From assembly GCA_047601145.1 (NCBI GenBank), contig JASGJW010000009.1:1-28551 (forward strand): a stretch of DNA of 28,551 bases. Reading direction: 5' to 3'. This document shows positions 356-19,981 of the stretch, piece by piece. Position 1 is the stretch's first letter. Each line of letters opens with the position of its first letter. This DNA comes from Hyphomonadaceae bacterium. Lineage in GTDB: Bacteria; Pseudomonadota; Alphaproteobacteria; Caulobacterales; Hyphomonadaceae. The notes under the pieces are model-generated. The model saw only the letters and a list, made by a program, of their open reading frames with translations, ran no database searches and was not told the origin of the DNA. The position numbers and the translations under genes were made by a program.

Positions 356-430
356 TGGTGCCGCGTGAGGGGATTGAACCCCCGACCTTTGGTTTACAAA
401 ACCACTGCTCTACCGCTGAGCTAACGCGGC
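356..430 (-). tRNA. tRNA-Thr (anticodon UGU), CCA encoded
   Basis: The reverse complement reads GCCGCGT-TA-GCTC-AGCGGTAG-GAGC-A-GTGGT-TTTGTAA-ACCAA-AGGTC-GGGGG-TTCAATC-CCCTC-ACGCGGC-A-CCA. It has a 7-bp acceptor stem, the D-loop AGCGGTAG, U33 and A37 in the anticodon loop with TGT at positions 34-36, and the T-loop TTCAATC. Confidence 0.9.
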
Positions 431-908
431 CCTCGCGCGCCGACTACCCGCAAGGAACGCGACTGTCTACTGTCTCTTGTACGGGACTGTTCCTAAAGTA
501 CAATTCCAGTCGCCGAGGCGCATGCGGGTTTTTCCACGCAGAGCACGTCATCGCGCATGACCGCCGCACAAAAACGACGCTGGTTTCTGGCAATCCGGTA
601 GCGTTGTACGAAACTCACGTCCCTCGCGCACCGGACGACCGCGCCAGGTCGAGCGTGATCGAGATGCTGTGGGCGGGCGAGACGCTGTGGGCGAGAACAA
701 AACATAGCGTGCCACTTCATTAGCGCCGAGGAAGCCGGCGCAGACCACAGCGCGCCCCTAAGACCGCCCCGACGGCGCCATGTACAAAAGTCTGGATTTA
801 TCAAGCGTGTAGAGCGTAGCGCGCGCGGAGCGTTCTGAAAGCTACAAATATTTTCGCCGATCGTGTGACCCGATTTGCCGAGCTGGGACGCCATCAGAGG
901 TAAGACCA

Positions 909-1493
909 ATGGAGTCTCCTTTGATGCAAAGCCCTGTCGTCGACATCTCGCAGATCCCTCAGGCTTATTGGCCGCTCATCGACTGGCTGTTCACCGGCCT
1001 CATCGTCCTGGTCGTCCTCTGGATCGCTTCTACGGTCTTCATCGTTTTGCGCCGCAACGCGTCCGGACTTACACCGGTCCAGGCCGCCCGGATCAACAAG
1101 AACGCGCGTCCCGACTTCCTCGATGGCGATCAAAAGAAGCGCAAGGAGGCCCTGGAGCGGGGCGCCGCCTACGACCGCGAGCTTGAAAAGGCGGAAGCCG
1201 AAGAGCGTGAGGTCGAGCGCAGAAAATCCAAGGAGCCGCTCACGGCGACCCAGCGCCTGATGCGATTGTTGAGCCTCGTCATGGCGCTGTTCTCGCTTGC
1301 AACACTGATCGGCAGCGTGATCTTCCAGATTAACTACATCAGCGGCCTGCTGGAGCAGGCCTCGGCTGGCGACCAAATAATCCAGTTGGTTTTGCGCCAT
1401 CCAATCGGCGTCACGATCGCGGTCGTCGTCATCCTCTATCATGTCGTGACCTTCGTCACCGATAAGAAATGGAAGCCGGCCGAGCAGGTCTGA
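909..1493 (+). CDS. hypothetical integral membrane protein: 1 N-terminal TM, a charged coiled-coil loop, 2 C-terminal TM
   Basis: ATG at 909 with GAGG 8 nt upstream (alternative ATG at 924). The hydrophobic segments are LIDWLFTGLIVLVVLWIASTVFIVL, LLSLVMALFSLATLIGSVIF and PIGVTIAVVVILYHVVTFV. A KR/E-rich loop (KKRKEALERGAAYDRELEKAEAEEREVERRK) separates them. It is the first gene of the module. Confidence 0.6.
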   Translation: MESPLMQSPVVDISQIPQAYWPLIDWLFTGLIVLVVLWIASTVFIVLRRNASGLTPVQAARINKNARPDFLDGDQKKRKEALERGAAYDRELEKAEAEEREVERRKSKEPLTATQRLMRLLSLVMALFSLATLIGSVIFQINYISGLLEQASAGDQIIQLVLRHPIGVTIAVVVILYHVVTFVTDKKWKPAEQV

Positions 1494-3135: not shown

Positions 3136-4386
3136 ATGCCCGTTTCCGCTTCCCCCTCGGGCGCTGCGCTAGCCGACCTCAGCCATTTCGGGGTTTCCAG
3201 CCTCGTTGTGGATCACCTTCGGCCGAAATGCTGTCGGGCGAGTGCGCGTAGCTCTGCGGATGCGGCTTACTGCAACGAATGTGGAAACCTCATTCTACGT
3301 TGCGCAGCCTACGAGGAGTGCGGCGGTCTCGTTGATGAAACGGGTTTCTGCCCCTCCTGTTTCAACCTCGAGTCATTTCTCGATTCCGGCGCTGTTCGCC
3401 ACGCGAAGGTTGGCTCCTCGATGACGTTGCCGCTCATATTCCGCAATGCGGGCGGTCACGGGCGCGCGTTGTTTGCATCCGAGCTGTGGATCCGTCAGGG
3501 AGCGGGCGAGCGCGTACGCCAGCCGATTCCCTGGGAGCGGCTGAATGCGGGGCAAAGCGCATCATGGACGTTGCAGACGCAGCCCCTCCAGCAGACCGGC
3601 CGCCAGAGTTTCGAGGTTATTCTCGTCGTCGCCAGCCGTGCTCGTTGGCGCGAGGAAAAGTTCGCTCTTGCCGCAAACATGGAAATCGGCGTCGAGGACG
3701 ATGGTCGGGTCGTCGTAAATCAGACGATCAACGTGGCGGGCGGCGAAGTGGCAGGTGCGGGCCACACGGTCTACGCGCCGATCCGCATCGAGTCAGACAG
3801 CCGCAGCCACGTTCAGGAACAGGGCTCCAAAGATCCTTCCCCGCTTGCGCTTTCGCGGGCGGACGGCTTCGAGCGTGAGCGGCGCCTTCGTGGGACGACA
3901 CACGGTCTGGTCGACAGGACGGTCAAGCTCGAATGGAAGGGATTTTCCCCCGATGAGGCCGGTCCGCTCGGCCCTATCATAACGTCGGATGGAATGCTCG
4001 CGCTTGGCCGATCGCGCCTCAAGTCACAAGAGGGCGTAACCGACGTGCGCCTGACGGTTCGCGATGCCGCCGGCAGGCTCAACAGGGTTCTGAGCGAAGA
4101 GATTTCGCGCCGCCATATCGATCTGTTTGTTCAAAACGGCGCCCTTTGCGTACGGGCTTCGGGCAAGGCCGGTCTGAGAGTGAACGACCAGGGCCTGCGC
4201 CAGGGAGAAGTCATCGCCCTGGGGGATGGCGACCGTCTCGTCGTGTTGCCGCGCCGTCCCACGGCGCTGGCGCTGGACGTCCGCTTTGAAGTTCATCACG
4301 GCGTTGTCGAACTAGTGACGCTGACACGTGTGCCGGCCACGCCTGGCGAGGCCTCCTCAAACATTCGGATGAGAGCAGGATCATGA
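3136..4386 (+). CDS. zinc-ribbon / FHA-domain protein
   Basis: ATG at 3136 (MPVSASPSG). The N-terminus is Cys-rich (CNECGNLILRC ... CGGLVDETGFCPSC). The C-terminal ~100 aa match FHA hallmarks: LGRSRL..(G-R), SRRH (S-R-x-H), a NG..VN-type loop (SGKAGLRVNDQGL) and a GD..L motif (GEVIALGDGDRLVV). The stop TGA overlaps the next start (ATGA at 4383-4386). Confidence 0.6.
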   Translation: MPVSASPSGAALADLSHFGVSSLVVDHLRPKCCRASARSSADAAYCNECGNLILRCAAYEECGGLVDETGFCPSCFNLESFLDSGAVRHAKVGSSMTLPLIFRNAGGHGRALFASELWIRQGAGERVRQPIPWERLNAGQSASWTLQTQPLQQTGRQSFEVILVVASRARWREEKFALAANMEIGVEDDGRVVVNQTINVAGGEVAGAGHTVYAPIRIESDSRSHVQEQGSKDPSPLALSRADGFERERRLRGTTHGLVDRTVKLEWKGFSPDEAGPLGPIITSDGMLALGRSRLKSQEGVTDVRLTVRDAAGRLNRVLSEEISRRHIDLFVQNGALCVRASGKAGLRVNDQGLRQGEVIALGDGDRLVVLPRRPTALALDVRFEVHHGVVELVTLTRVPATPGEASSNIRMRAGS

Positions 4387-5957
4387 AGTGTCCGCATTGC
4401 TCCGTTGCGGTTCCCGAAGACGCGCGTTTCTGCCCCGAATGCGGCAAGCGCATAACCGGTGCGATGGCCGATGCTTCGGCGTCCATGTCGATGCAATCCG
4501 GTCCCGTGCTCACATTCGGCGGGTTGCAGACGATGGATGGGCCTTCCTCGCGCGCCTCCAGCACGGGTTCGACGGAGGCGTTGCTTGAGCCAGGCGATCT
4601 GTTCGCGGATCGCTACGAGATCAAAGCGGTTATTGGGGCAGGGGGGGCGGGCGTCGTCTATGCGGCGCGCGACAAGGTCACATCCGAAGACGTCGCGCTG
4701 AAACTTATCCGACCTGACCGCCTGCATGGGAGCGACGCCGTCTCGCGGCTGGTGCGCGAAGGCGTCACGGCTCGGGGCGTTCGCCACCCTAACGTGATCG
4801 CTGTCTATGACGTTGGAGAAGCTGATGGTCAGCCCTACATGTCGATGGAGCTGGCACAGGGACAATCCCTGAGATCGTGGAACCAGAAACGGCTTGCCGC
4901 GCGCCGTGACTGTTCGTTGAAGACAGCTGCGGTCATCGTGTCAGCGATCCTTGACGGCCTTGAGGCGGCTCACGCGAAAGGGATCGTCCACCGCGATCTC
5001 AAGCCTGAGAACGTGATCCTGACGAGCGAGCCGTCGGATGAGGGCGTCACTCTCAAGATACTTGATTTCGGCATCGCCATCGCGGTTGGCGCGACCACAG
5101 GAATATCGGGTTCCGGGCCTGCAGGCTCGATTGGTTACATGGCGCCTGAACAACTGACGGCCCCCGACACGGTCGGCCCCTCGGCGGACCTCTATTCCGT
5201 TTCGGTGATCTTCTACGAATTGCTGATGGATGCCCCGCCGCAGGGTCACTGGCAGCCGCCCAGCGGCGGGCGCTCTGGTATTTCAGCCGGAATTGACAGC
5301 TTGATCGAGAACAGCCTGTCAAACCGAGCGCGAAGCCGGCCGCAATCGGTTGCCGACTATCGCAAGGCTATGAAAGCCGCACTCGGCCCGATGGGCATGG
5401 TGGACTGGAAGACACTCTATCAGCCGCGTCGCAGCAAGTTGCCGACAAATATCCCAAAGTGGGTGTGGTGGACCGCGGGCATCATCATCGGCCTTAGCGT
5501 GATTGCTTACCTGATGGACGAGTATTCCGGCGCCAGCGGGGGCGACTATGATCAGTACGGTTCGGTGACGCCGGCGACGGCGGTTGGGACAGCGCCCGAG
5601 GGCGCCGTCAAGCAAACTGCCGTCACCGTCCCATCACAGAGGCCAGCTCCCTCGCGTCTTTCGGGTTCGTGGGACGACGGCGCCGGCTCGATCTGGCGGG
5701 TGAACGTCACCGATGGCGGGCAGGTTACCGGTCAGGCGACATCCGGAGCTGCGACGGGGATGGTCATGACGGGCGCCTTCGCCGGCGACCAGTTCAGTTT
5801 TCAGTCGGGCGTCAACGGCTATGGCGCGACGGTGCAGGGCCAAGGGCTCTTTGACGGCGGCTGCCACATCAATTTTCAGTCCTATGACGCTGGAACTGGC
5901 CTGACGTCGGCTGGGCAGATTCATGTCAATCACCCCGCAGGAGCGCCATGCCCATGA
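4383..5957 (+). CDS. Hanks-type Ser/Thr protein kinase: N-terminal zinc ribbon, kinase domain, single TM, extracytoplasmic Gly/Thr-rich domain
   Basis: MKCPHCSVAVPEDARFCPECGKRI is a zinc ribbon. Kinase motifs present: GAGGAGVVY (P-loop), VALK, HRDLKPENV, DFGIA and GYMAPE. The TM segment is WVWWTAGIIIGLSVIAYLM. A ~150-aa C-terminal domain lies outside the membrane. Confidence 0.8.
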   Translation: MKCPHCSVAVPEDARFCPECGKRITGAMADASASMSMQSGPVLTFGGLQTMDGPSSRASSTGSTEALLEPGDLFADRYEIKAVIGAGGAGVVYAARDKVTSEDVALKLIRPDRLHGSDAVSRLVREGVTARGVRHPNVIAVYDVGEADGQPYMSMELAQGQSLRSWNQKRLAARRDCSLKTAAVIVSAILDGLEAAHAKGIVHRDLKPENVILTSEPSDEGVTLKILDFGIAIAVGATTGISGSGPAGSIGYMAPEQLTAPDTVGPSADLYSVSVIFYELLMDAPPQGHWQPPSGGRSGISAGIDSLIENSLSNRARSRPQSVADYRKAMKAALGPMGMVDWKTLYQPRRSKLPTNIPKWVWWTAGIIIGLSVIAYLMDEYSGASGGDYDQYGSVTPATAVGTAPEGAVKQTAVTVPSQRPAPSRLSGSWDDGAGSIWRVNVTDGGQVTGQATSGAATGMVMTGAFAGDQFSFQSGVNGYGATVQGQGLFDGGCHINFQSYDAGTGLTSAGQIHVNHPAGAPCP

Positions 5958-6481: not shown

Positions 6482-7444
6482 ATGAGTGAGATGTGGAAAT
6501 CCTATCGCCTCGATACCTGCTTGTTCGAGCCGCCCTCGATCCAGGCGCCCATCCTGCGCGCCACCGCCAGGATTTCAACGCTTCCGCCGCGTGTCGACCT
6601 GAGGCCGCTCTGTTCGAAGGTGGAAGACCAGGGTCAGGTTGGCTCCTGCGCGGCCAACGCCGTCGTTGGCGCGCTGGAGTATCATCAGCGCAAGGCCGGT
6701 CTCAACGTGACCGATCTTTCGCGACTGTTCGTCTACTACAACGCCAGAAATATGGCCAACAAGACTGCGGAAGACTGCGGCACGATGATCTCGCACGTGA
6801 TGGCCTCCGTCCTGGCCTTCGGCGCCTGCGAGGAGCGCTTGTGGCCATACATCGAAGCCATGTGGCCTGAAAAGCCGACACAGGCCTGCTATGGAAACGC
6901 GCTTCGCTATGAGGCGGTGTCTTATGCGCGCGCGCCTTTGGGCGATGCGTGCCTGATAGCCCTGGCGCAAGGCCTGCCGATCGTGTTCGGCACCTTCCTG
7001 CCGAGTGATTTCTATGGTGTCGCCGCGCAAACGGGTGTCGTGCCCGAGGTCAGCGAAAGCGTGGAGGCGCCAGGCGGAGGACACGCAATGCTGCTGGTGG
7101 GTTACGATCTGCCGACGCGCACCTGGCTGGTTCGCAACAGCTGGAGCGAGAAGTTTGCAGACCGGGGCTATTTCCGCATCCCTTTTTCAACGCTCAACAC
7201 CTATTCAATGCCTGATGGGTTCTGGACGATCGGAGCCATTGAAGTTCTCGAGGGCGTTCAGTTGCACGGTCTGGGCGTGCGGGAAGCGATGCGCGCTGCC
7301 AGCATGGCCGCCCCTAACGATGTCGAGAGCAGCCTCGAGCGGTTACGCAAGAATATCCGCAAGAAGCTGAACACTGATCTTGAAGAGAAGAGGAAAGACG
7401 TCCGTGACCGTTTGCGCGGCCCAGGTGTCGGAGGAGGCTACTAG
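6482..7444 (+). CDS. papain-like (family C1A-type) cysteine peptidase, no signal peptide, with C-terminal basic/coiled extension
   Basis: LPPRVDLRPLCSKVEDQGQVGSCAANAVV aligns with papain [31 protein letters not shown], with Gln19 and catalytic Cys25 conserved. GGHAMLLVGYD matches GGHAV..VGY, the catalytic His. VRNSWSEKFADRGYFRI matches the NSWG..WG..GY Asn motif. There is no N-terminal signal peptide, and the disulfide Cys22 equivalent is Val. Confidence 0.75.
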   Translation: MSEMWKSYRLDTCLFEPPSIQAPILRATARISTLPPRVDLRPLCSKVEDQGQVGSCAANAVVGALEYHQRKAGLNVTDLSRLFVYYNARNMANKTAEDCGTMISHVMASVLAFGACEERLWPYIEAMWPEKPTQACYGNALRYEAVSYARAPLGDACLIALAQGLPIVFGTFLPSDFYGVAAQTGVVPEVSESVEAPGGGHAMLLVGYDLPTRTWLVRNSWSEKFADRGYFRIPFSTLNTYSMPDGFWTIGAIEVLEGVQLHGLGVREAMRAASMAAPNDVESSLERLRKNIRKKLNTDLEEKRKDVRDRLRGPGVGGGY

Positions 7445-7557: not shown

Positions 7558-7590
7558 CGGCGAGGGAATGGGCTCGCCGCTTCTTCATGG
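7558..7590. terminator. possible bidirectional terminator hairpin between convergent genes
   Basis: CGGCGAG-ggaatggg-CTCGCCG is a 7-bp stem with an 8-nt loop at 7558-7579. It is followed by CTTCTTCAT on the plus strand and ATTCCTCGTTTTCG on the minus strand. It lies between the peptidase stop at 7444 and the convergent gene stop at 7622. Confidence 0.3.
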
Positions 7591-7621: not shown

Positions 7622-8434
7622 CTACTTCCTGCCCAGCCGCGCCAGCAGCTCAGCCTTTTTCGCTTCAAGTACAGCGTCCAGACCATTCATCGCAGCGGCT
7701 GGTGGTTTGCCGGGGCCGGACCTCGTCGCTGCCAGCGCCTCGCGGGGTGAAACGACTTTTGGCGGTTTCAGTGGTCCCATGGGCGGGATGGGCGCAAAAT
7801 GCGTGGAGGCAAGATAGCCTCCACCTGCGCCTTGGCCCGCCATGGAACCTGGCGCGATGACTTGCAGTTCACCGGCGACGGTCACCAAAGTCTTCAGCAC
7901 CGCGTTGCGGCCGGAGATCATAACCATGGTCTCGCCGGGCGCTTCCGGGATGAAGGCATGCTCCATCTGGTCGCGTCCGCGGGGGAAAAGCCGGAAGATG
8001 CCGCCGTTGGCGCCATAGAGTTCAATAACCACAGAGTGCAGGTCGCGAAGACCCCGCATGCGGTACCGCCACTCACGGCCGGCTTCCGTCTGCCTTGGGG
8101 CTTCGACGTCGATAATGTAGCCCCCGCCGGCGCCGGGCCCATCATCACCCGCACGGGCGCCAGAAGTTGCGGCTACCGTGAAGCTATGGCTGGCCCTTGC
8201 AATCGCTGTTCCGAACTCATCCTGCGCAATCGCATCTATGCGTTCTGCTCCGGGAAAGCTCATGCCTGCGCTGTACGAGAGGGATGTGGCGCCCCGCGTC
8301 TCCTTGATATCAAATCCCACATTGCCGGAGATACCTGCCACGTCGAACTTGATCGAATACGCATCGCCAAAACTGGCGGCTGTTACGGTGATCGAGCCGT
8401 TGTCCGAAACACGCGATGGACCCGTAAGATGCAT
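7622..8434 (-). CDS. hypothetical glycine-rich protein, no signal peptide
   Basis: ATG at 8434-8432 (minus strand) has AGGAG 7 nt upstream. The translation MHLTGPSRVSDNGSITVTAASFGDAYSIKFDVAGISGNVGFDIKETRGATSLSYSAGMSF... has two GAGGGY motifs and a helical basic tail (LEAKKAELLARLGRK). The ORF track extends it to 8731 without a credible start. Confidence 0.5.
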   Translation of the reverse strand: MHLTGPSRVSDNGSITVTAASFGDAYSIKFDVAGISGNVGFDIKETRGATSLSYSAGMSFPGAERIDAIAQDEFGTAIARASHSFTVAATSGARAGDDGPGAGGGYIIDVEAPRQTEAGREWRYRMRGLRDLHSVVIELYGANGGIFRLFPRGRDQMEHAFIPEAPGETMVMISGRNAVLKTLVTVAGELQVIAPGSMAGQGAGGGYLASTHFAPIPPMGPLKPPKVVSPREALAATRSGPGKPPAAAMNGLDAVLEAKKAELLARLGRK

Positions 8435-8667: not shown

Positions 8668-8718
8668 TATTTGTTCCGGGGCGGCCCGCGGGGAGAATAC
8701 CGCAACAGGGGTAGGCGC

Positions 8719-9261
8719 GTGGGCGGTGCAAACAGCGACGAGGAGAAGGGGGCCGGGCGGGCCACCCATCGGGACGCCTTGCTGCGCGAACATTATGACG
8801 AGTTTCGCAGGGTAGCTGGCCGGGTCCTCAATGGGGACGCCAAGGTGCTGCAGATTCAGCCGACCGATCTCGCGCATGAAGCAGTGATCCGTCTCTCAAA
8901 GCTCAATCAGATTGACCTCGAAGGTCGCACGCATTTTCTTTCGCTCTCGGCGCGCGTGATGCGTCAGATCCTGATTGACGAAATTCGCCGGGTGCGCGCA
9001 GCCAAACGTAAACCGCCCACGATTGTCACGCAGCTTCCGCCTGAGCTGGGCCACCAGTCAGTTGATCTTGAAGATCTCGACCGTGCTCTTACAAAACTGG
9101 AAGCGATTGCCCCTGACCATGCCCGTCTCGTCGATCAGCGTTATTTTGCCGGCCTAACGGTTGAACAGATCGCCGTGGTTGAAGCGACGTCCGTCAGCAC
9201 TGTGAAGCGCCAATGGCGAGCCGCCCGCGCCTGGCTGCTTGCGGAACTTGGCGCGCGATAG
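8719..9261 (+). CDS. ECF-family RNA polymerase sigma factor (sigma-70 regions 2 and 4)
   Basis: Region 2-like DLAHEAVIRLSKL and region 4 HTH LVDQRYFAGLTVEQIAVVEATSVSTVKRQWRAARAWL. GTG at 8719 is chosen because an upstream candidate promoter would otherwise sit inside the ORF. The ORF track starts at TTG 8671, so the start is uncertain. The stop lies 3 nt before the next ATG. Confidence 0.65.
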   Translation: MGGANSDEEKGAGRATHRDALLREHYDEFRRVAGRVLNGDAKVLQIQPTDLAHEAVIRLSKLNQIDLEGRTHFLSLSARVMRQILIDEIRRVRAAKRKPPTIVTQLPPELGHQSVDLEDLDRALTKLEAIAPDHARLVDQRYFAGLTVEQIAVVEATSVSTVKRQWRAARAWLLAELGAR

Positions 9262-9264
9262 GTC

Positions 9265-11697
9265 ATGAACCATCCGCTGACCCGCCGCGCTCTTGATATC
9301 TTCGAGCAAGCCCTCGGAATTGATGAGGCGGGGCGGGATCTTTGGCTCGCAACAATTTGCGCAGGCGATGCCGCGTTGGGCAGCGAGGTCCGACGTCTTC
9401 TAGCCGCGGATGCGATCGCCGAGCGAGCCCTGCCGACCGGTGATCTGCAGCCCCGTGACGGGCCTATCCCCGAACACATTGGCCGCTACCGCATTGTCGA
9501 GCGCCTTGGACAGGGCGGCATGGGCGATGTCTTTGCCGGAGAGCGTGATGACGGCCTCTTTGACCATGCCGTCGCTATCAAACGCGTGCGTCCCACGCTT
9601 TTTGCTGAAACCGCCAAATCTTTGTTCGACCGCGAACGCCGCGCGCTGGCAACTCTCAGTCATCGGCATATCGCGCAGTTGTTTGACGGGGGCGTAGATG
9701 AGACCGGCGCGCCCTATCTCATCATGGAACTCGTCCGCGGTGTCTGCATTGACGAATTTGTGCGTCAGCATGACCTTTCACCGCAAAAAATCGCGGCCAT
9801 GATGATCGCGGTCTGTGATGCTGTTCAGCATGCCCACCAGAAGCTCATCGTTCATGCCGATCTCAAGCCAGCCAATATCCTCGTGAACGAAGCGGGCGAT
9901 CCCAAAGTCGTTGATTTCGGCGTTGCGCGACTGATTGGGGAAGGAGGCGAGGGCGGGATCTATCCCCATACGCGAGGCTATGCCAGTCCGCAGCGCGCGG
10001 CCGGCGCTGCGCCAACTCCCGCCGATGACGTCTATGCGCTGGGGGCAATTCTGTGCGTCCTCCTTACGGGCGAGCCCCCTGAGAGCGGTAACGCACTCCT
10101 CACGCCTTCGCGCGTGACCGAGCGGTCAGCTGCTTTTACCGATCGCTCCGCCAATTGGCTCCGATCACGGGCGCGCGAAATGCGGGGCGATCTCGACGCC
10201 ATCATTGCACGGGCCTGCGCTGAAAATGCCGAAGACAGGTATCCCGCCGCCCACGCCCTCTCTGCCGATCTGCAGGCCTGGCTCGAATTTCGCCCGATCG
10301 CGTCCAGGTCTGAAGACACCTTCTATGTCTTTCGAAAATTCGTCCGCCGTCGCCGCTGGCGAGTGATTGGGGGCGCCACATTTTCCATCGCGCTCATCAC
10401 TGCGCTCATCGTCACTGTGTTGCTCTATACTCAAGCCGACTTTCAGCGTCGTCAGGCTGAGGCGCGTTTCGATGAGGTGCATTCGCTCGCAAGGTATTTG
10501 TTATACGATGTCTATGACCGGCTCGAGCAATCCCCCCAGACCCTAGCGATGCGTCGCGACGTTGCCCGCGTGGCTCAGGGCTATCTCGATGTGCTGGCCG
10601 CTGCTCCGTCGGCCCCGCCGGATGTGCTGCGCGAAGCTGCCGAGGGGCTGGTGCGGATTGCCGATCTTCAGGCAGGCCGATCGCGCGCCAATCTTGGCGA
10701 GCTGATCCAGGCTTTGGCAAACCTCGAGAAGGCGAGTGCGATCGCTGCCCGTTTGCCGGAGCACCCGCAGCGGGATGGTTCCACGTTTGCTCTGCGTGCT
10801 GGCATTGCCATTCGCCAGGCGTCCCTGGCGATGAATTCCAATCAGGATTTACCGAGAGCTTCGCGCCTGCTCGATCAGGCCGCGCGAGACATCGCAAAGC
10901 TATCCGACGACGGCAAATTGCGATCAATGCTGACGCTGCAGTTCGAGGTCGAGTCAGCCGTCCTTGCCAACTGGAAGGGCGTCTACGCCGAGGGCGTTCA
11001 GCATGCCCAGCGTGCAATCAATGTTGCGGGTGCTCTGCCCATCAACGCGGCGGATGCCCGCGACGCCCACTATCTCCTGGCGCGCGCGTGGGATGCTTAT
11101 GCGGAGGCCACCTACTACGGCACGGGAGAGGCAGCATCGGTGCCTGCTTACAGCAAGCTCGTGAGCATCGCATCGAGCTATGCGTCATCCCATCCCGACG
11201 ACATGATGGGCGTCAGGATCGCAATCGAAGCTCACTGGGCGCTTGGAACCACCCTCCTCGGCATCGAGCGTCTGCGTGACGGCCTGAGGGAGCTCGATGA
11301 TGCGAACAGGCTCCTTCCCCGGCTGTTGCGGTTCCAGCCCGATGACGAAGGTGCACGTCGGACCCAGCAGATTGTGCTCGGCGCCCGGGCCCAGGCGCTC
11401 GCGATGAATGGGAGGTTCGCCGAAGGGGTGGCCATCCTGAAGGAAAGGCTAGCCTCTGCAGAACAGGCGGCGAGCACGCCAGACGCAGTTGCGGCGGACA
11501 AACGCTCGCTTGCCGTTACAAAGACAATGCTTGCCGATCTTTACGCCGATTCAGGTCGCGCTGGACCCGCGTGCACGCTCTATGACGAGGCCGATGCGAT
11601 CTTTTCTGGCCTTGAAGCGCAGGGTCTTCTGTCTCAGCTTGACCGGGACAGCGCTCAGCGGATGGCGCGCGAGCAGAAGGACAAATATTGCCGATGA
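9265..11697 (+). CDS. membrane Ser/Thr protein kinase (HAD variant of HRD) with C-terminal TM and large helical repeat (TPR-like) domain; likely partner or regulator of the upstream ECF sigma
   Basis: Kinase motifs LGQGGMGDVF, AVAIKRV, HADLKPANIL and DFGVARL, plus an APE-like GYASPQ. The TM segment is VIGGATFSIALITALIVTVLLY. A ~400-aa helical C-terminal domain lies outside the membrane. It is translationally coupled to the sigma gene. Confidence 0.75.
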   Translation: MNHPLTRRALDIFEQALGIDEAGRDLWLATICAGDAALGSEVRRLLAADAIAERALPTGDLQPRDGPIPEHIGRYRIVERLGQGGMGDVFAGERDDGLFDHAVAIKRVRPTLFAETAKSLFDRERRALATLSHRHIAQLFDGGVDETGAPYLIMELVRGVCIDEFVRQHDLSPQKIAAMMIAVCDAVQHAHQKLIVHADLKPANILVNEAGDPKVVDFGVARLIGEGGEGGIYPHTRGYASPQRAAGAAPTPADDVYALGAILCVLLTGEPPESGNALLTPSRVTERSAAFTDRSANWLRSRAREMRGDLDAIIARACAENAEDRYPAAHALSADLQAWLEFRPIASRSEDTFYVFRKFVRRRRWRVIGGATFSIALITALIVTVLLYTQADFQRRQAEARFDEVHSLARYLLYDVYDRLEQSPQTLAMRRDVARVAQGYLDVLAAAPSAPPDVLREAAEGLVRIADLQAGRSRANLGELIQALANLEKASAIAARLPEHPQRDGSTFALRAGIAIRQASLAMNSNQDLPRASRLLDQAARDIAKLSDDGKLRSMLTLQFEVESAVLANWKGVYAEGVQHAQRAINVAGALPINAADARDAHYLLARAWDAYAEATYYGTGEAASVPAYSKLVSIASSYASSHPDDMMGVRIAIEAHWALGTTLLGIERLRDGLRELDDANRLLPRLLRFQPDDEGARRTQQIVLGARAQALAMNGRFAEGVAILKERLASAEQAASTPDAVAADKRSLAVTKTMLADLYADSGRAGPACTLYDEADAIFSGLEAQGLLSQLDRDSAQRMAREQKDKYCR

Positions 11698-11886
11698 TCC
11701 CCTCAGGAAGCGCTATTTGAGCCGACAGCTCTGCCTGTCAGACGAGAGCGTCTACTCCCCCCCTGCAGCCAACTCGGTCCTGGCGGTCCGCAACATCTTG
11801 GCGCGACAGCTCGAGGCGCGTTGACCCTTCAGTTGAGCTCCCACGGCTCCTTGCGTTTACGCGTCAGCAACAATCCATGAATAAGG

Positions 11887-11920
11887 TGCTATTAGCATAT
11901 AGATGCAGCGCGGCGCTGCA
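11887..11920. promoter_or_regulatory. two adjacent palindromes upstream of the pilin gene (candidate operator or 5'-UTR hairpin)
   Basis: TGCTA-T-TAGCA at 11887-11897 and TGCAGCGC-G-GCGCTGCA at 11904-11920, ending 20 nt before the pilin ATG at 11940. Confidence 0.3.
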
Positions 11921-11939
11921 GTCGAGCTGGGTTTGCGGG

Positions 11940-12470
11940 ATGGCATCGCTTCTTCGAAGGCTGTTTGAGCCTCACAAGACCGCATTGCGGTTCACGCTCG
12001 TTGCTTTGGCGTTCGGGCTCTCAACCGTTGGCTTGGCCAGCGCCCAGACAGCGACGAGTTCGTTCAACGTCACGGCGAGCGTGCAGAATGCATGCACGAT
12101 CAGCGCGGCTGATCTGGCGTTCGGCGTCTATTCAACGATCAGCGGCGCCAACCTCGATGGCTCCTCGACGATCCAGGTCAAATGCACCCTCAGCGCGAGT
12201 TATGCAGTCTCGCTGAACGCTGGGACGACTGCTGGCGGCTCGATATCGGCCCGCCTGATGACCAATGGGTCAAGCACGTTGGGCTACAATGTCTACACAA
12301 CCAACGGCCGGACAACGGTCTGGGGGGATGGCACAGGCGGATCCTCTTCGGTTGCCGGCACGGGCACTGGCCTTACCCAGAACCTCACCGTCTACGGACG
12401 CATCGCGGGCGGGCAGAACCTCGCTGCCGGCAGCTACTCGGACGTCGTCACAGCAACGATCAGCTTCTGA
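11940..12470 (+). CDS. spore-coat-U (SCPU) domain / Csu-type pilin subunit
   Basis: Signal peptide MASLLRRLFEPHKTALRFTLVALAFGLSTVGLASA|QT. The mature part is Ser/Thr/Gly-rich with paired Cys (NACTIS ... VKCTLS), as in CsuA/B-like SCPU pilins. The alternative ATG at 11877 would give a 58-aa leader and is considered less likely. Confidence 0.65.
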   Translation: MASLLRRLFEPHKTALRFTLVALAFGLSTVGLASAQTATSSFNVTASVQNACTISAADLAFGVYSTISGANLDGSSTIQVKCTLSASYAVSLNAGTTAGGSISARLMTNGSSTLGYNVYTTNGRTTVWGDGTGGSSSVAGTGTGLTQNLTVYGRIAGGQNLAAGSYSDVVTATISF

Positions 12471-12477
12471 GGCCGCA

Positions 12478-13197
12478 ATGAAGAACACCCCCCTCCCGAC
12501 ATTATGTGCGGCTCTGGCGGTGCTCGCACTCCTGGCATCGCCCCAGCCTGGGTACGCCGTGACCCTGTCGCCGCTTACGCTGGTCATGGAGCGCGACAAG
12601 ACGATCGTGACCCTGCATGTCCAGAACGACGACAAAGAGCCGAGGATATTTGAAGTTCAGGCGTTCCGATGGAGCCAGGAAGGCGGGGAAGACAGGCTGG
12701 CGCCGGCGATCGATCTCGTGGTGACGCCGCCGATCGTGAAGCTCGCTCCGGGAGAAGAAAAAATCATCCGCGTGGGCGTCATGAAGAAAGATCGCGAAAG
12801 CAATGGAGAAAAGGCCTACCGACTTCTCCTGCGCGATATTACCCCGACCGAGCTTCAGGCAGGCGAACTCCATCTGCAGATGCAGTACCTGTTGCCACTA
12901 TTCGTGTCGCCTGTCCGACCGCATGGCGGTGTGCAACTGGTCGAGGCCGCCTCGTCAGACGATACGCGCTGCATAAAGATAACGAACACCGGGAATGTTC
13001 ACGCCAAGCTCGTGTGGACGGCGGGAGATGGAGCGCCGGAAAGCGTCTCGCCGACGCAGAAATATGTTCTGGCCGGGGGGCAGACGCTCTACTGTCCAAA
13101 GGTCGCCTCCGCCGAAATGGGGGCCGCGAGGGTTGGCGTTACATCGGCCTATCAGAGCGAGGTGACTTCCTATGAGGTCATGCCGCCCGCACATTAG
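12478..13197 (+). CDS. periplasmic pilus assembly chaperone (PapD/CsuC-like)
   Basis: ATG at 12478 with GAGG 6 nt upstream. Signal peptide MKNTPLPTLCAALAVLALLASPQPGYA. PapD-like features include TPPIVKLAPGEEKIIRV (PP..L.PGE...RV). The ORF track start at 12265 overlaps the pilin and is rejected. Confidence 0.75.
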   Translation: MKNTPLPTLCAALAVLALLASPQPGYAVTLSPLTLVMERDKTIVTLHVQNDDKEPRIFEVQAFRWSQEGGEDRLAPAIDLVVTPPIVKLAPGEEKIIRVGVMKKDRESNGEKAYRLLLRDITPTELQAGELHLQMQYLLPLFVSPVRPHGGVQLVEAASSDDTRCIKITNTGNVHAKLVWTAGDGAPESVSPTQKYVLAGGQTLYCPKVASAEMGAARVGVTSAYQSEVTSYEVMPPAH

Positions 13198-15535
13198 GGA
13201 AAGCTACCTTCTTCTGACCAGCTGTCTCATGGCCATCACGGTCAGCCAGCACGCTTCAGCGCAGGAGCAGGTATCAGCCTCGCCGCTTGATTCCTCAGGC
13301 GGCAACCCCGACGAAATCCTTCTCCTCGAGCCGCGGATCAATGAGGGTGCGCCGGACCCGCCGATTTTTGTCGTGCGTCGCGCAGGCCGCCTCCTGCTGC
13401 CGACAGATTATCTGCAACGTCACGACTTCCTGTTTGTCGGCGCGGGCGAGAACATTGGAGGAGATACCTACGCCCCAACTGGAGACATCGCCACGTTCAG
13501 CGCCCGGATCGATGAGGCTCGCGGTCTCCTCAGCATCACGTGCGAGGCCGCCTGCTTCAGCGGGGCGAGCCTTGCCGTCAGTCGCGCTCATATCGCTGCC
13601 GTTTCGCCGATCGAGCCTGGCGCCTTCGTCAATTATGACGCCTATGCGGAGGCTGGCGATGCTGGTCCATCCTCCGGCGCGTTTGCCGAGGTTGGGGTGT
13701 TCTCGGATTTTGGAACGGGTGTCACCGGGCTATTCTGTTCGCATCGCGCAGACGAGAGTACTTGCGGCCGGCTGGAGACGAGCTGGACGATCGATGATCC
13801 CGCAAGCGCGCGTCGGCTGGTGCTGGGCGATGCCCTTACACAAGCCGCGCGATGGGGCGCGCCGGCGCGGTTTGCGGGGATTAGCTGGGGAACGGATTAC
13901 TCTCTCCAGCCCGACTTCGTCACGTATCCGACGCCGGTCGTGTCAGGGGACGCAACGCTCGCCAGTTCTGTTGACGTCTACATAAACGATGCATTGCGGT
14001 TCCAGTCGCCGGTGTCCGCAGGGCCGTTCCGTATCACGGACATTCCCGTCATCACCGGTGAGGGAAGCGCGCGCGCCGTTGTGACGGATCTCCTCGGGCG
14101 CGAGCAGACAATCACGACGGCGTTTTATACAGCCCCCGAAATGCTTCGGCGCGGTCTCGACAAGTATGGCGTTGAGGCTGGCCTACTCCGCAAGAATTTT
14201 GGAAGCGAGAAGGACGCCTATCAGGATCCCTTTCTGGCCGCGGGCTATTCACGCGGCCTGTCGGATGACGTGACAATAAGCCTTCGATCCGAACTTGGCT
14301 CGCGGCAACAATCGATTGGCGCCTCGGCGATGATGGCGAAGACGGGGTTTGGACAAAGCGAAGGCGCTCTTGCGTTTTCCGGGGGTGAGAGCGGGGAAGG
14401 AGCGCTCGGCCGTTTTGCCCAGGATTTCAGGTCGCCACAGGTCACGATTGGCGGCGTCATCACAGCAGCAACGCCAGGCTATCGCACCTTCGGCTCGGAT
14501 CGGCCGATCGCAAGGCTCGCCTCAAACGTCTTTATCGGCTTCAACAGCGAACAGTACGGTTCTGCTTCTTTCAGCTGGGCGTATCGTGATGAGCGTTACG
14601 ACGAAAATTTTTCTGCGATCGGCATCAACTACGCCGCCAGGATCATGGGCGCATCGATATTCCTGACGGCGTTGCGAACCAGCTCTGCCCAGGAGGGCTA
14701 TTTTGGCTCGCTGACGATTTCCGTTCCACTGGGTGGTGGGAGCTCGGCTTCTTCCGGCCTTGAATATGACGGCAGGCGTCTTGGCGCAGACCTGCGTCTT
14801 CAAAGCGATGTGCCAGTATCGGGTGGCATTTCCTACCGGGCGCGGGTCGCCTCGGGAGGCGTTGATCGCGCCGACGCGGGCCTCACAGGGCGCGGACCAT
14901 TCGGGGATCTCTCGGCGGATTTCAGCAGCGCCAATGGCGAGGAAGCGTTCCGGCTATCGGCGCGCGGCGGGCTTGCTGCGGTCGATGGCGAGTTGATTTC
15001 GGCTCCCACCATCGGCGGGGGTGTCGCCGTGGTCTCCGTTGGACGCCAGCCGGGCGTTCGTGTGTTCCATGACCGGCAGCTGGTTGGCGTGACCGACGCC
15101 GAGGGCAAGATCATCGTTCCCGCCCTGCGTTCATTCGAGCGCAATGTGATCTCCTTCGATACGGAAGACCTGCCGCTTTCGGTCGATTTCGACGCGACCG
15201 AGCTTGTCGTCACGCCTGGTTATCGCACTGGCCACAAGGTTGCGTTCAAGGCGAGCCAGACATTCAGCATGATGGTCAGGATATTCACCGAGGATGGCGC
15301 TCCATTGCCGACGGGAGCATCGATGATCAATGCCGATACGGGCGAGATCTATCCCGTAGGCTCCGATGGCGCCGTGTTCATTCCTGGTGCAGGCAAGAAG
15401 GTGCGGCTCGATTATGAGGCTCCGTTCGAGCGGTGCGACGCAATCATTGTCACGCCGGACGAACCAACGTCCGTCCCTGTCTGGGATGGAGGCACGCTGG
15501 TCTGCCACAGATCAGCACTGCAGGCGCTGCGATGA
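13172..15535 (+). CDS. outer-membrane fimbrial usher (CsuD/FimD-like)
   Basis: 787 aa. Signal-peptide-like N-terminus (LLLTSCLMAITVSQHASA|QE). It sits between the chaperone and a second pilin gene, with size and beta-rich composition typical of ushers. It overlaps the chaperone end by 26 nt and the next gene by ATGA. Confidence 0.7.
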   Translation: MRSCRPHIRESYLLLTSCLMAITVSQHASAQEQVSASPLDSSGGNPDEILLLEPRINEGAPDPPIFVVRRAGRLLLPTDYLQRHDFLFVGAGENIGGDTYAPTGDIATFSARIDEARGLLSITCEAACFSGASLAVSRAHIAAVSPIEPGAFVNYDAYAEAGDAGPSSGAFAEVGVFSDFGTGVTGLFCSHRADESTCGRLETSWTIDDPASARRLVLGDALTQAARWGAPARFAGISWGTDYSLQPDFVTYPTPVVSGDATLASSVDVYINDALRFQSPVSAGPFRITDIPVITGEGSARAVVTDLLGREQTITTAFYTAPEMLRRGLDKYGVEAGLLRKNFGSEKDAYQDPFLAAGYSRGLSDDVTISLRSELGSRQQSIGASAMMAKTGFGQSEGALAFSGGESGEGALGRFAQDFRSPQVTIGGVITAATPGYRTFGSDRPIARLASNVFIGFNSEQYGSASFSWAYRDERYDENFSAIGINYAARIMGASIFLTALRTSSAQEGYFGSLTISVPLGGGSSASSGLEYDGRRLGADLRLQSDVPVSGGISYRARVASGGVDRADAGLTGRGPFGDLSADFSSANGEEAFRLSARGGLAAVDGELISAPTIGGGVAVVSVGRQPGVRVFHDRQLVGVTDAEGKIIVPALRSFERNVISFDTEDLPLSVDFDATELVVTPGYRTGHKVAFKASQTFSMMVRIFTEDGAPLPTGASMINADTGEIYPVGSDGAVFIPGAGKKVRLDYEAPFERCDAIIVTPDEPTSVPVWDGGTLVCHRSALQALR

Positions 15536-18256: not shown

Positions 18257-19981
18257 ATGTCCCGTATCCTCATCACCTCGGCGCTGCCGTACATCAACGG
18301 CGTGAAGCACCTCGGGAACCTCGCGGGTTCGATGCTTCCGGCGGATGTCTATGCGCGGTTCAACCGGGCGATGGGGCGCGAGGTGTTGTTCATCTGCGCG
18401 ACCGACGAGCACGGCACGCCGGCAGAGCTCGCCGCGATCGAAGCTGGCCAGACCACCGCGCAATACTGCGATGAACAGCACGAGATCCAGAAGCGCGTCG
18501 GGCAGGGCTTCTCCCTGTCGTTCGACCATTTCGGCCGCTCGTCGAGCCGCCCGAACCGCGAACTCACGCAGCACTTCGCCGACGTGCTTGAAGACAATGG
18601 CCTGATCGACGAGCGCACGTCGAAACAGGTCTACTCGGTCGACGACAAGCGCTTCCTGCCGGATCGCTATGTCGAGGGCACATGCCCGAACTGCGGTTAC
18701 GAAAAAGCCCGCGGCGACCAGTGCGACAATTGCGGAACGCTGCTTGATCCGGTTGAGCTGATCAATCCCTATTCGTCCGTGTCTGGATCTAGGAATGTCG
18801 AGATCCGCGACACGCGCCACCTCTATCTCCTGCAATCGAAGATGCAGGACGACGTACGCAAGTTCGTGGATGCACGCGCCAGGGACTGGCCGAACCTCAC
18901 CACCTCCATCGCTTACAAATGGCTCGATGAAGGCCTGATCGACCGCTCGATCACGCGTGACCTGTCGTGGGGCGTGCCCGTCACGCGCGGCGGCCAACCG
19001 CGCCCGGGCTTCGAGAACAAGGTCTTCTACGTCTGGTTCGATGCGCCTATCGAATACATCGGCTCTACGGTCGAATGGGCCGAGGCCAACGGCCAGAACT
19101 GGGAGCGCTGGTGGCGCACCGACAAGGGCGCGAGCGACGTCACCTATGTCGAGTTCATGGGCAAGGACAACGTCGCGTTCCACACGGTCTCGTTCCCGGT
19201 CACGATCCTTGGGTCGAAGGAGCCGTGGAAGCTTGTCGACAAGCTGAAGGCCTTCAACTGGCTCAACTGGTATGGCGGCAAGTTCTCCACCAGCCAGAAA
19301 CGCGGCGTCTTCATGGACCAGGCGCTCGAACTTCTGCCGGGCGATTACTGGCGCTGGTACCTGATCGCGAACTCGCCGGAGAGCTCGGACACCGCGTTCA
19401 CATGGGAGTCGTTCAAGGCGGGGATCAACTCCGACCTCAACGACGTGCTCGGCAACTTCGTGAACCGCATCACGAAATACGCAGCGGCGAAGTTCGACGG
19501 GAAGGTTCCGGACGGCGGGACGCCGGGCGAGCACGAAGCCTGGATGGCAAATGAACTCGCCACGCGCCTGCCTGCGCTCATCAGCTATTACGAAGCGATG
19601 GAATTCCGCAAAGCCGCCGCCGAAACCCGCGCCATCTGGGCTGCCGGCAACGAATACATCACCAAGTCCGCGCCGTGGACAGCCTACAAGACGAGCGTGG
19701 AGCAGGCGGCGGTTGGCATTCGCACGGGCCTCAATCTCGTGGCGCTGTTCGGGATCATCGCCCAGCCGATCATTCCGGAGACGGGGAAGAAAATCCTCGA
19801 GGCCCTCGGTGTGCCAGGCGACCGGCGCAGCCTCAACTCTTTGGGCCTCGGACAGGGCGGCTATGCCGCACTACTAGATGCGCTGCCACGCGGAATGCCA
19901 ATCAACGTCCCGCCCCAGCTCTTCACCAAGATCGAGGATGCACAGGTCGCCGAATGGACGGCGCGGTTCGGCGGGGGCTGA
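18257..19981 (+). CDS. metG: methionine--tRNA ligase (short form lacking C-terminal tRNA-binding domain)
   Basis: [13 protein letters not shown] (the HIGH-type motif), the zinc knuckle [28 protein letters not shown] (the KMSKS motif) and overall class I aaRS architecture. Confidence 0.9.

Follow-up and report, generated by a model that had tools for sequence, protein, structure and literature searches.

We analysed a stretch of 28,551 nucleotides (nt) from a Hyphomonadaceae bacterium (contig JASGJW010000009.1 of assembly GCA_047601145.1), here called the window, with a focus on a gene at positions 6482-7444 that encodes a papain-family (C1A) cysteine peptidase of 320 amino acids (aa). The peptidase gene is the last in a tightly packed cassette on the forward strand, in which the genes overlap or are separated by intergenic gaps of 3 to 41 nt. 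The genes of the cassette and the features of the peptidase are listed below, with their coordinates in the window.

909-1493, forward strand: first cassette gene, a 194-aa membrane protein with an N-terminal transmembrane helix, a charged helix and two C-terminal transmembrane helices
1535-3133, forward strand: 532-aa soluble protein with a modelled SPFH domain, a long coiled coil and a C-terminal zinc (Zn)-ribbon, a YdjI-like architecture (Zn-ribbon from Pfam; fold from AlphaFold2 (AF2) and Foldseek)
3136-4386, forward strand: Zn-ribbon/FHA protein of about 416 aa, with Cys-rich Zn-ribbons at the N-terminus and an FHA domain at the C-terminus (Pfam FHA, E = 5.2e-5, 24 bits against a cut-off of 20.7)
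4383-5957, forward strand: Hanks-type Ser/Thr kinase of 524 aa with a Zn-ribbon, a kinase domain, a transmembrane helix and an extracytoplasmic domain of about 140 aa
5948-6448, forward strand: lipoprotein-like protein of 166 aa with the lipobox LIVLVAC, an optional member of the cassette
6482-7444, forward strand: C1A cysteine peptidase of 320 aa, xylellain-type, predicted to be cytoplasmic; ATG start and TAG stop; last cassette gene
6482-6568, forward strand: N-terminal segment of the peptidase, residues 1-29, a candidate pro-segment that would occlude the active site
6629-6649, forward strand: active-site motif QGQVGSC, with Gln50 (6629-6631), Val53 at the papain Cys22 position (6638-6640) and the catalytic Cys56 (6647-6649)
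7082-7144, forward strand: catalytic His201 (7082-7084) and Asn219 (7136-7138), with Trp221 (7142-7144), assigned by alignment and invariance
7277-7417, forward strand: subfamily-defining C-terminal helix, residues 266-312, modelled by AF2 as a single helix with predicted local distance difference test (pLDDT) scores of 81-91 and ending in F-R-x-R-L-R
7418-7441, forward strand: C-terminal motif GPGVGGGY, the end of the peptidase

Family assignment and catalytic residues of the peptidase

A Shine-Dalgarno-like element (GGAG) is located 9 nt upstream of the ATG of the peptidase gene. The encoded protein has 691 homologs at E ≤ 1e-5, which shows that the open reading frame (ORF) is not a chance ORF. 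It matches a database entry annotated as a C1 family peptidase of a Hyphomonadaceae bacterium, whereas a look-up of the exact sequence returned no record. Residues 34-235 match the Pfam model Peptidase_C1 (PF00112) with an E value of 5.3e-13 and a score of 50 bits, above the cut-off of 20.7. The model for the C1B enzymes (PF03051) remained below its threshold in the Pfam scan, with 15.2 bits against a cut-off of 22 and a match confined to residues 201-234, and no NCBIfam model matched the peptidase. In a HMMER alignment to cathepsin S, Gln50, Cys56, His201, Asn219 and Trp221 correspond to Gln19, Cys25, His159, Asn175 and Trp177, respectively, and Val53 is placed at the position of Cys22. Gln50, Cys56, His201 and Asn219 are invariant in 119 family members as well as in 140 representatives of clusters at 50% identity, and the Trp of the NSW motif is nearly invariant across the family and its wider relatives. 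The protein had been predicted from the letters of the window to be a C1 peptidase with its catalytic residues in canonical motifs, and this is borne out by the PF00112 match and by the placement of the four residues on those of papain. The profile search that had been proposed as a check returned C1 as the best match, with the Cys and the His in register, and the three motifs and the tail sequence quoted in the original prediction are all found in the translation of 6482-7444.

The structure predicted by AF2 from the family alignment has a mean pLDDT of 91.7 and a predicted TM-score (pTM) of 0.88. Its nearest neighbour in the PDB is xylellain (3OIS), retrieved by Foldseek with an E value of 1e-21 and a TM-score of 0.83 normalised to xylellain, with all observed residues of the latter aligned (267/267). 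Xylellain is also the top match at the sequence level, with an E value of 1.8e-33 and about 30% identity. The two-lobe papain fold is evident from the 302 PDB matches that Foldseek returned at E ≤ 1e-3, for which the top matches listed are xylellain, cathepsins, procathepsins and related papain-family enzymes. The peptidase is a papain-family C1A enzyme, and its residues suggest that it appears to be catalytically competent.

Cellular location and disulfide bonds

No N-terminal hydrophobic segment, signal peptide or transmembrane helix was detected in any of the 119 members, and the most hydrophobic window of 19 residues is internal, around residue 155, in every one of them (119/119). The proposed lack of a secretion signal is thus a property of the whole family. 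The Pfam scan of the peptidase gave no match to the I29 prodomain. The alignment to cathepsin S also confirms that Val53 replaces the Cys at the papain Cys22 position, as had been noted. Cys99 occupies the position of papain Cys63, at which a Cys is found in only 28% of the family. None of the three conserved papain disulfides is present in the peptidase, which does not show the set of traits of the classical eukaryotic C1A enzymes. The absence of signal peptides and transmembrane helices, the fusions to Zn-ribbons described below and the free conserved cysteines together indicate a reducing, cytoplasmic compartment.

Cysteines without a papain counterpart are kept in the 119-member subfamily at Cys13 (codon at 6518-6520; 97%), Cys44 (6611-6613; 99%), Cys116 (6827-6829; 100%) and Cys136 (6887-6889; 76%). 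Cys116 is also kept in 101 of 105 relatives that align with the family profile over the peptidase core only, here called core-only relatives.

To estimate the size of the clade, the peptidase profile was searched against 1.84 billion cluster representatives at 50% identity, which gave matches to 39,462 clusters at E ≤ 1e-3 and to 3,474 clusters at E ≤ 1e-30. Among the 105 core-only representatives, which were drawn from the top matches, the Cys22 position is occupied by L, I, T, V or M and the Cys63 position most commonly by S, A, E, T or D, and a Cys is never found at either of them. Short “xylellain-type” C1A peptidases have been described as widespread in Bacteria, with intracellular ones that lack signal peptides (Kordis & Turk 2023, PMC10380794). 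The missing signal peptide and the missing disulfides are normal for a large bacterial clade of short C1A peptidases, and the view in the original prediction that a cytoplasmic, disulfide-free papain fold is uncommon in bacteria is not supported by these numbers.

A C-terminal helix defines a small subfamily

The core that aligns with xylellain ends around residue 254, and residues 255-320 extend beyond it. This tail is present without gaps in 119/119 members. The hydrophobic stripe of its helix is conserved at L285, L288, L292, L296, L300, A303, F307 and L311, and Arg or Lys residues are conserved at positions 289, 293, 304, 308, 310 and 312. The hydrophobic periodicity is 3.7 residues and hendecad-like. 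Across the family, the net charge of the helix at residues 285-312 is about +3.7, versus about -5.7 for the core. The earlier description of a basic, helical C-terminal extension of about 70 aa therefore fits residues 255-320, with the AF2 helix at 266-312 and the net charge given above.

The subfamily that bears the tail is small and comprises about 30-45 clusters at 50% identity, with about 45 that match the profile from end to end at scores of at least ~290 bits. Below about 290 bits, the matches fall to the core only, at profile positions of approximately 28-250. Re-scoring of the top 148 representatives gave 26 domains with both the N-terminal segment and the tail and about 102 with the core only, and the rest were fragments or internal units of tandem fusions. 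The tail defines a small subfamily of short C1A peptidases.

An ending of the type GGGY (GPGxGGGY), as in the window, is found in 40 of the 119 members, and GPGxGGGY is repeated three to five times in tandem at the C-terminus of the peptidase in L078, L083, L084 and P0257. Many members end exactly at RLR(G/D). The six-frame translation of the window contains three copies of G-P-G-A/V-G-G-G-Y, one at the C-terminus of the peptidase and two in a 270-aa protein encoded by a convergent gene. The family of the 270-aa protein has 11 proteins, including one encoded at L003 145-987 on the reverse strand that also carries the motif, and its only invariant stretch is the two DGPGAGGGY blocks. As a reader of the GGGY ending, we considered the helical-repeat domain of an 810-aa kinase encoded downstream, but rejected it because the domain follows a transmembrane helix and should be periplasmic.

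Zn-ribbons are a further accessory of the subfamily. N-terminal extensions are present in 24 of the 119 members, and 23 of these 24 hold one to three CxxC Zn-ribbon units, which are of the same type as those on the SPFH, FHA and kinase proteins of the cassette. Domains of this kind are found in the cytoplasm. In distant members, Cys-rich repeats are located C-terminal to the helix.

The N-terminal segment has conserved residues at W5, Y8, L10, G12, C13, L14, F15, E16, P19, A22, P23 and L25. Residues 11-30 are modelled by AF2 as non-helical with a pLDDT of 85-93, and the segment falls within the Foldseek alignment with the N-terminal segment of xylellain. The latter is reported to block the active site of xylellain (Leite et al., FEBS Lett 2013). 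Some of the core-only relatives align from profile position ~7, which indicates that the N-terminal segment is more widely shared than the tail. Binding of the FHA domain to a phosphorylated Thr in the tail was considered and rejected, since the tail has no conserved Thr.

The peptidase gene has been duplicated in tandem in at least eight loci. Examples of duplicated peptidases are found at L001 10969-11964 and L085 15327-17330 and in P0241, P0242 and P0243. Single polypeptides with two or three complete units, among them P0241 and P0242, also occur; Zn-ribbons are interleaved between their units, and the length of such polypeptides reaches up to 1181 aa. The duplications hint that the peptidase may act as a dimer or an oligomer.

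The other proteins encoded by the cassette

The 194-aa membrane protein is a candidate anchor of the SPFH protein. Pfam gives only sub-threshold matches to membrane families for this protein. The ORF of the SPFH protein could begin at position 1469, but the homologs and the NCBI record favour the ATG at 1535 and a length of 532 aa. The SPFH domain is barely visible by sequence, with a match to Pfam Band_7 in only 2 of 45 homologs of the 532-aa protein, and sequence and profile searches of this protein against the PDB gave only Zn-ribbon or noise matches. The AF2 model has a mean pLDDT of 74 and shows an N-terminal domain rich in beta structure, helices of great length and a ribbon at the end. 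The top 50 PDB matches of this model in Foldseek are all SPFH/vault cage proteins, with E values down to 3e-10, and represent erlin, HflK/C, stomatin, prohibitin, flotillin, QmcA and the major vault protein. According to the model, the 532-aa protein has an SPFH fold, and the SPFH scaffold that had been proposed in the original prediction is confirmed, since only cage proteins of this type were retrieved among the top matches.

The listed ORF of the FHA protein starts with a TTG at 3058, which is probably too far upstream, and the ATG at 3136 is located directly after the stop codon of the SPFH gene. The start of the 524-aa kinase gene overlaps the stop of the FHA gene by 4 nt. The kinase matches Pkinase with an E value of 3.5e-41 and Zn_Ribbon_1 with an E value of 9e-7, and the motifs HRDLKPEN, DFG and APE are present in its translation. 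The lipoprotein is a paralog of the extracytoplasmic domain of the kinase, as identified in a BLASTP comparison with kinase residues 427-519 (5661-5939, forward strand; E = 1e-7), and it might be a soluble decoy or a co-sensor. NCBIfam has no model for the transmembrane, SPFH, FHA and lipoprotein proteins, and no phosphatase gene was seen in the cassette of the window.

Conservation of the cassette across genomes

A scan of one genome per species, covering 185,579 species, identified 361 loci that encode a relative of the peptidase. The best 80 of these 361 loci and four other loci, 84 in total, were searched by tblastn with the proteins from the window. The sampled loci belong to the Hyphomonadaceae (Hyphomonas, Henriciella), the Sphingomonadales, the Planctomycetota/Pirellulaceae, a metagenome-assembled genome of the Acidobacteria, Pseudohongiella and others. 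The kinase was found in 82/84 loci, the FHA protein in 75/84, the SPFH protein in 71/84, the transmembrane protein in 68/84 and the lipoprotein in 15/84. The order and the strand of the genes are as in the window in most loci, and most of the gaps are explained by short contigs or contig ends. The gene for the transmembrane protein is located directly upstream of the SPFH gene where the loci are arranged as in the window, and the gene calls for three independent genomes showed the same layout. Three loci were reached via divergent SPFH homologs, and all three end in one or two C1 genes. These three loci share chromosomal flanks among themselves.

The order of the cassette is membrane protein, SPFH/coiled-coil/Zn-ribbon protein, Zn-ribbon/FHA protein, Zn-ribbon/Hanks kinase, optional lipoprotein and C1 peptidase, and the synteny is near-obligate. 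The peptidase gene had been placed at the end of a kinase/FHA operon, and it is indeed the last gene, with linkage in essentially every related locus that has enough flanking DNA. The idea that the effector at the end of the cassette is swapped between loci was rejected, since every inspected locus with an SPFH homolog ends in a C1 gene, and no case of a different terminal effector was seen among the inspected loci.

Outside the cassette, the only recurrent neighbours are a transmembrane Hanks kinase with a helical-repeat ectodomain (43 loci), an extracytoplasmic function (ECF) sigma factor (38 loci), a 168-aa multi-transmembrane protein (37 loci), a Metallophos phosphatase (nine loci) and a second C1 paralog (eight loci). 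The gene for the 168-aa protein (L002 16078-16584 and 36 other loci) is located beside the cassette or beside the pair of ECF sigma factor and kinase, on either side, and has no homolog in the window. The gene for the Metallophos phosphatase (L002 11011-11727 and eight other loci) is located beside the cassette and is a candidate partner of the kinase.

Carriage of the tail-bearing subfamily by plasmids or phages was considered and rejected. No such record was found, and the matches in plasmids and phages cover the core only, at 30-38% identity. The family C1A and the xylellain-like type are already known. No description was found in the literature, PADLOC, Pfam or NCBIfam of the tail-bearing subfamily, of the Zn-ribbon and GPGxGGGY modules that it shares, or of a conserved cassette of the SPFH-FHA-kinase-C1 kind, and all three appear to be new.

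Promoter motif and neighbouring genes

The features that surround the coding sequences of the cassette in the window are as follows.

356-430, reverse strand: tRNA-Thr (TGT) gene, about 480 nt upstream of the cassette
866-892, forward strand: TGACCCG-N17-CGCCA, conserved motif of an ECF-like promoter, 17 nt ahead of the first gene of the cassette
7558-7579, forward strand: GC-rich terminator-like hairpin between convergent genes, a weak candidate as such sites are not above the shuffled expectation in the region
7622-8434, reverse strand: 270-aa protein with two GxGAGGGY copies, convergent with the peptidase gene and with no Pfam match
8671-9261, forward strand: ECF-type sigma factor (profile matches to PF07638 and TIGR02999), start codon uncertain
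9265-11697, forward strand: Hanks kinase of 810 aa, probably the partner of the ECF sigma factor, with a transmembrane helix and a helical-repeat domain outside the cytoplasm
11877-15535, forward strand: chaperone-usher pilus cluster with an SCPU/spore-coat-U-type subunit, a PapD-like chaperone and an usher

About 40-45% of 68 related loci have a motif of the form TGA-N-C-[CG]-G, N14-18, GCGCCT[CT] ahead of the first cassette gene, mostly 30-60 nt from the gene and with an A/T-rich run before the motif. The strict pattern TGACCC-N14-20-CGC[CT] was found in 28 of the 68 upstream regions of 200 bp, versus a background of 0.01 per 200 nt, and a looser version in 31/68, versus a background of 0.005, which amounts to an enrichment of about 40-fold or more over the background of the loci. 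A scan for sigma-70 promoters detected none upstream of the cassette in the window. The protein cluster of the ECF sigma factor is represented in 38 of the non-duplicate related loci, and the sigma factor has tblastn matches in 47 of the 84 loci. From the adjacency and the conserved motif, we infer that the adjacent ECF sigma factor drives the promoter of the cassette.

The pair of an ECF sigma factor and a transmembrane Hanks kinase, encoded side by side and without an anti-sigma factor, resembles PknT/EcfP in Vibrio and PknS/EcfK in Xanthomonas. ECF sigma factors that are activated by a kinase and have no anti-sigma factor are already an established type, as exemplified by PknS/EcfK (PMC13147305), and kinase-associated groups are included in the re-classification of the ECF sigma factors (PMC7826278).

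The ORF listed at 301-723 on the forward strand is an artefact that covers the tRNA-Thr gene. The pilus cluster is followed by genes for a methionyl-tRNA synthetase (18257-19981), an aromatic amino-acid hydroxylase and a Ppx/GppA phosphatase, which represent an ordinary chromosomal context.

Comparison with known systems

The peptidase and xylellain (3OIS) have the same layout of Gln, Cys, His and Asn, lack the Cys22-Cys63 disulfide and contain a Cys at the GxCxE position. Both also have a short N-terminal segment in place of the I29 prodomain. However, the 29 N-terminal residues of the peptidase show no detectable sequence similarity to those of xylellain, and xylellain lacks the C-terminal helix, the GPGxGGGY motif and the Zn-ribbon variants of the subfamily. 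Short, disulfide-free bacterial enzymes with a length of about 250-290 aa are the nearest relatives of the peptidase, which places it among the xylellain-type enzymes, with the tail added on top. Compared with xylellain, the kinase/FHA/SPFH operon context is shown here only for the tail-bearing subfamily. Papain and the cathepsins of the L/S/K type share with the peptidase the two-lobe fold (TM-score of about 0.8 normalised to cathepsin) and the motifs QGxxGSC, GHA and NSW. Unlike these enzymes, the peptidase lacks a signal peptide, an I29 propeptide and the three disulfides, is encoded in an operon and is predicted to be cytoplasmic. Bleomycin hydrolase and PepC of the C1B subfamily resemble the peptidase in that they have a papain fold, are cytoplasmic and lack disulfides. 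In the C1B enzymes, the active site is regulated by an extension at the C-terminus. The peptidase is not a member of C1B, as it has 320 aa versus about 440 aa and a different architecture, and its score for PF03051 is below the threshold.

In HflK/C-FtsH, prohibitin-m-AAA and archaeal stomatin-STOPP/NfeD, a protease is genetically coupled to an SPFH coiled-coil protein of the cage type. The same is seen here, where the protease gene is co-encoded with an SPFH-fold scaffold in 71/84 loci and in 3/3 of the loci reached via SPFH homologs. SPFH cages are known to organise proteases, as in HflK/C-FtsH (PMC10936438). However, the protease of these systems is an AAA+ metalloprotease or a serine protease of the ClpP-like type, whereas that of the cassette is a soluble cysteine enzyme of the papain type. 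The SPFH protein of the cassette is itself soluble and has a Zn-ribbon at its end, the operon also encodes a kinase and an FHA protein, and the link observed is a genetic one. The likeness to the SPFH-protease systems is one of analogy and not of membership, since the class of the protease (C1A) differs.

Another similar system is the pspA-ydjGHI operon of B. subtilis, which is controlled by sigmaW. Its product YdjI is soluble, combines an SPFH domain with a Zn finger at the C-terminus and is anchored by small membrane proteins (PMC8581546). In both operons, a soluble SPFH/Zn-finger protein is encoded beside small membrane proteins, and an ECF-type promoter appears to be common to the two. The cassette differs in that it contains no PspA but a Hanks kinase, an FHA protein and a C1 peptidase, and the likeness to YdjI is one of architecture.

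Proposed role of the peptidase

The genomic association of the peptidase with the cassette is strong. Beyond its identity as a cytoplasmic C1A peptidase encoded in an operon, we infer that it may serve as the output protease of a signalling or stress module at the membrane, in which it would be latent and docked on a scaffold, a reading to which we give about an even chance of being right. The analysis shows the fold and the catalytic residues of the peptidase, its lack of an export signal, the synteny of the cassette, a tail and an N-terminal segment that are conserved, the SPFH fold of the partner and the promoter motif, whereas latency, docking, the direction of the signal and the substrate are proposals. 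The peptidase would be made latent by the conserved ~29 N-terminal residues, which by analogy with xylellain would lie over the active-site cleft; the model places this segment with confidence, its residues are conserved, and in structure it aligns with the N-terminal segment of xylellain. The basic amphipathic C-terminal helix would dock the peptidase on an assembly of the SPFH, FHA and kinase proteins at the inner membrane face, and the Zn-ribbons or the GPGxGGGY repeats may add to the docking in some members. A tether of the tail to the SPFH scaffold or to the membrane had been suggested in the original prediction. That these are docking elements is suggested by the presence of the tail in all members and its absence from about 100 core-only relatives, and by the Zn-ribbon type that is common to the partners. 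As for the direction of signalling, the kinase would sense an envelope signal and bring about an assembly that depends on phospho-Thr and the FHA domain, upon which the protease would be de-repressed and cleave its substrate, presumably a membrane-proximal cytoplasmic protein. Such a mechanism is plausible because there are precedents both for SPFH-protease systems, in HflK/C-FtsH, and for envelope-stress systems, in pspA-ydjGHI.

A few observations weigh against a latent, docked output protease. The ECF sigma factor adjoins the cassette in only about half of the loci, and the cassette encodes neither PspA nor any other known stress effector. The N-terminal segment and the tail of the 119 members lack a conserved Ser or Thr, and there is thus no obvious direct phospho-switch in the peptidase. 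Furthermore, the 80 sampled loci represent the closest relatives, at 43-59% identity, and the more distant tail-bearing members were sampled thinly.

A more elaborate proposal, which we consider possible but doubtful, is that the SPFH/coiled-coil protein forms a cage that is anchored by the membrane protein, run by the kinase, the FHA protein and the ECF sigma factor, and recruits the latent papain-type protease as its cargo or output. It is equally tentative that the recruitment would be mediated by the C-terminal helix as a targeting element together with the GPGxGGGY and Zn-ribbon modules, and would result in regulated proteolysis on envelope stress. If true, such a cage would be a cysteine-protease counterpart of HflK/C-FtsH or of the loading of cargo into vaults and encapsulins.

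Several other explanations have been weighed against the latent, docked output protease. The cassette could be an anti-phage or abortive-infection module, in which the kinase and the FHA protein act as the sensor and the C1 peptidase is a toxic effector that attacks host or phage proteins. Architectures with a kinase plus an effector are common in such modules, and the kinases match the generic PADLOC models PD-T4-6, MAD6 and MkoA. The distribution over Alphaproteobacteria, Planctomycetota, Acidobacteria and Gammaproteobacteria is patchy, the flanking genes differ between many loci, and there is a tRNA-Thr gene just upstream of the cassette in the window and a toxin-antitoxin pair near the cassette of L086. 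However, the generic models for the two kinases were the only matches in PADLOC-DB v2, with none for the other six proteins scanned, and tail-bearing members are absent from the plasmid and phage records. Most of the sampled Hyphomonas and Henriciella species have the cassette, which is thus not sporadic in these genera, and it has conserved chromosomal flanks in one clade, and the periplasmic sensor domain of the kinase and the ECF-type promoter are a better fit to envelope signalling. Because of the generic nature of the PADLOC matches, the absence from plasmids and phages, the broad occurrence in the Hyphomonadaceae and the periplasmic sensor, a function in defence is less supported, and we regard it as unlikely. 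We rate it as considerably more improbable that the enzyme is a general intracellular peptidase with a PepC-like role in peptide turnover and that its position in the operon is devoid of functional meaning. Short cytoplasmic C1A peptidases are extremely common in bacteria and many of them stand alone, but the synteny with the four upstream genes is near-obligate across phyla, the peptidase has its own tail and shares Zn-ribbon accessories with its operon partners, and the C1B (PepC) model is below the threshold.

The remaining alternatives concern the enzyme itself. Instead of being a docking element, the tail could be an intramolecular regulator, either as a pseudosubstrate or as an autoprocessing site, as Phe307-Arg308 and Leu311-Arg312 are classic P2-P1 pairs for the papain family and the ending in RLRG is similar to the C-terminus of ubiquitin. 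The counterpart would be the C-terminal arm of bleomycin hydrolase, which sits in the active site of the enzyme itself. The near-invariance of F307, R308, R310, L311 and R312, and the many members that end exactly at RLR(G/D), are in line with such a role, the acidic core (-5.7) and the basic tail (+3.7) would permit the tail to fold back, and the pTM of 0.88 applies to the whole chain with the helix included. On the other hand, a continuous helix of 47 residues, about 70 Å, makes a poor substrate for a protease and exceeds the domain in length, the cleft would by homology already be filled by the N-terminal segment, and the internal units of the tandem fusions lack the last third of the tail but have intact catalytic motifs. 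We regard this role of the tail as unlikely. Export of the peptidase to the periplasm or the medium by a non-classical route, for example to act on envelope proteins beside the lipoprotein, is very improbable. It would agree with the location of the gene downstream of the lipoprotein gene in the window, and xylellain is said to have been first discussed as a virulence-associated protease. Yet no signal peptide or transmembrane helix is found among the 119 members, a reducing environment is suggested both by the fusions to Zn-ribbons and by the conserved cysteines that are free, and the lipoprotein gene is missing from most loci. Finally, a catalytically inactive pseudo-protease with a role as scaffold only, for which nothing specific to this protein speaks, has next to no probability in our view, given that the Gln, Cys, His and Asn are invariant, and the Trp nearly so, in the family and its wider relatives.

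Significance

The papain-family enzymes are among the best-studied proteases, but the roles of the numerous short cytoplasmic members in bacteria are almost unknown. The tail-bearing subfamily provides a concrete handle on them, as an enzyme encoded in a conserved operon with an SPFH protein, an FHA protein and a receptor-type kinase in about 360 species from several phyla, and with docking-like elements that are particular to the subfamily. If the link between the peptidase and its partners is physical, the SPFH-protease theme would be extended to a cysteine protease under the control of phospho-signalling, and there would be a testable route to the physiological substrate of a bacterial C1A enzyme. 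Should the link be regulatory only, the peptidase would still be a clean example of an intracellular protease that is controlled by an ECF sigma factor and a kinase.

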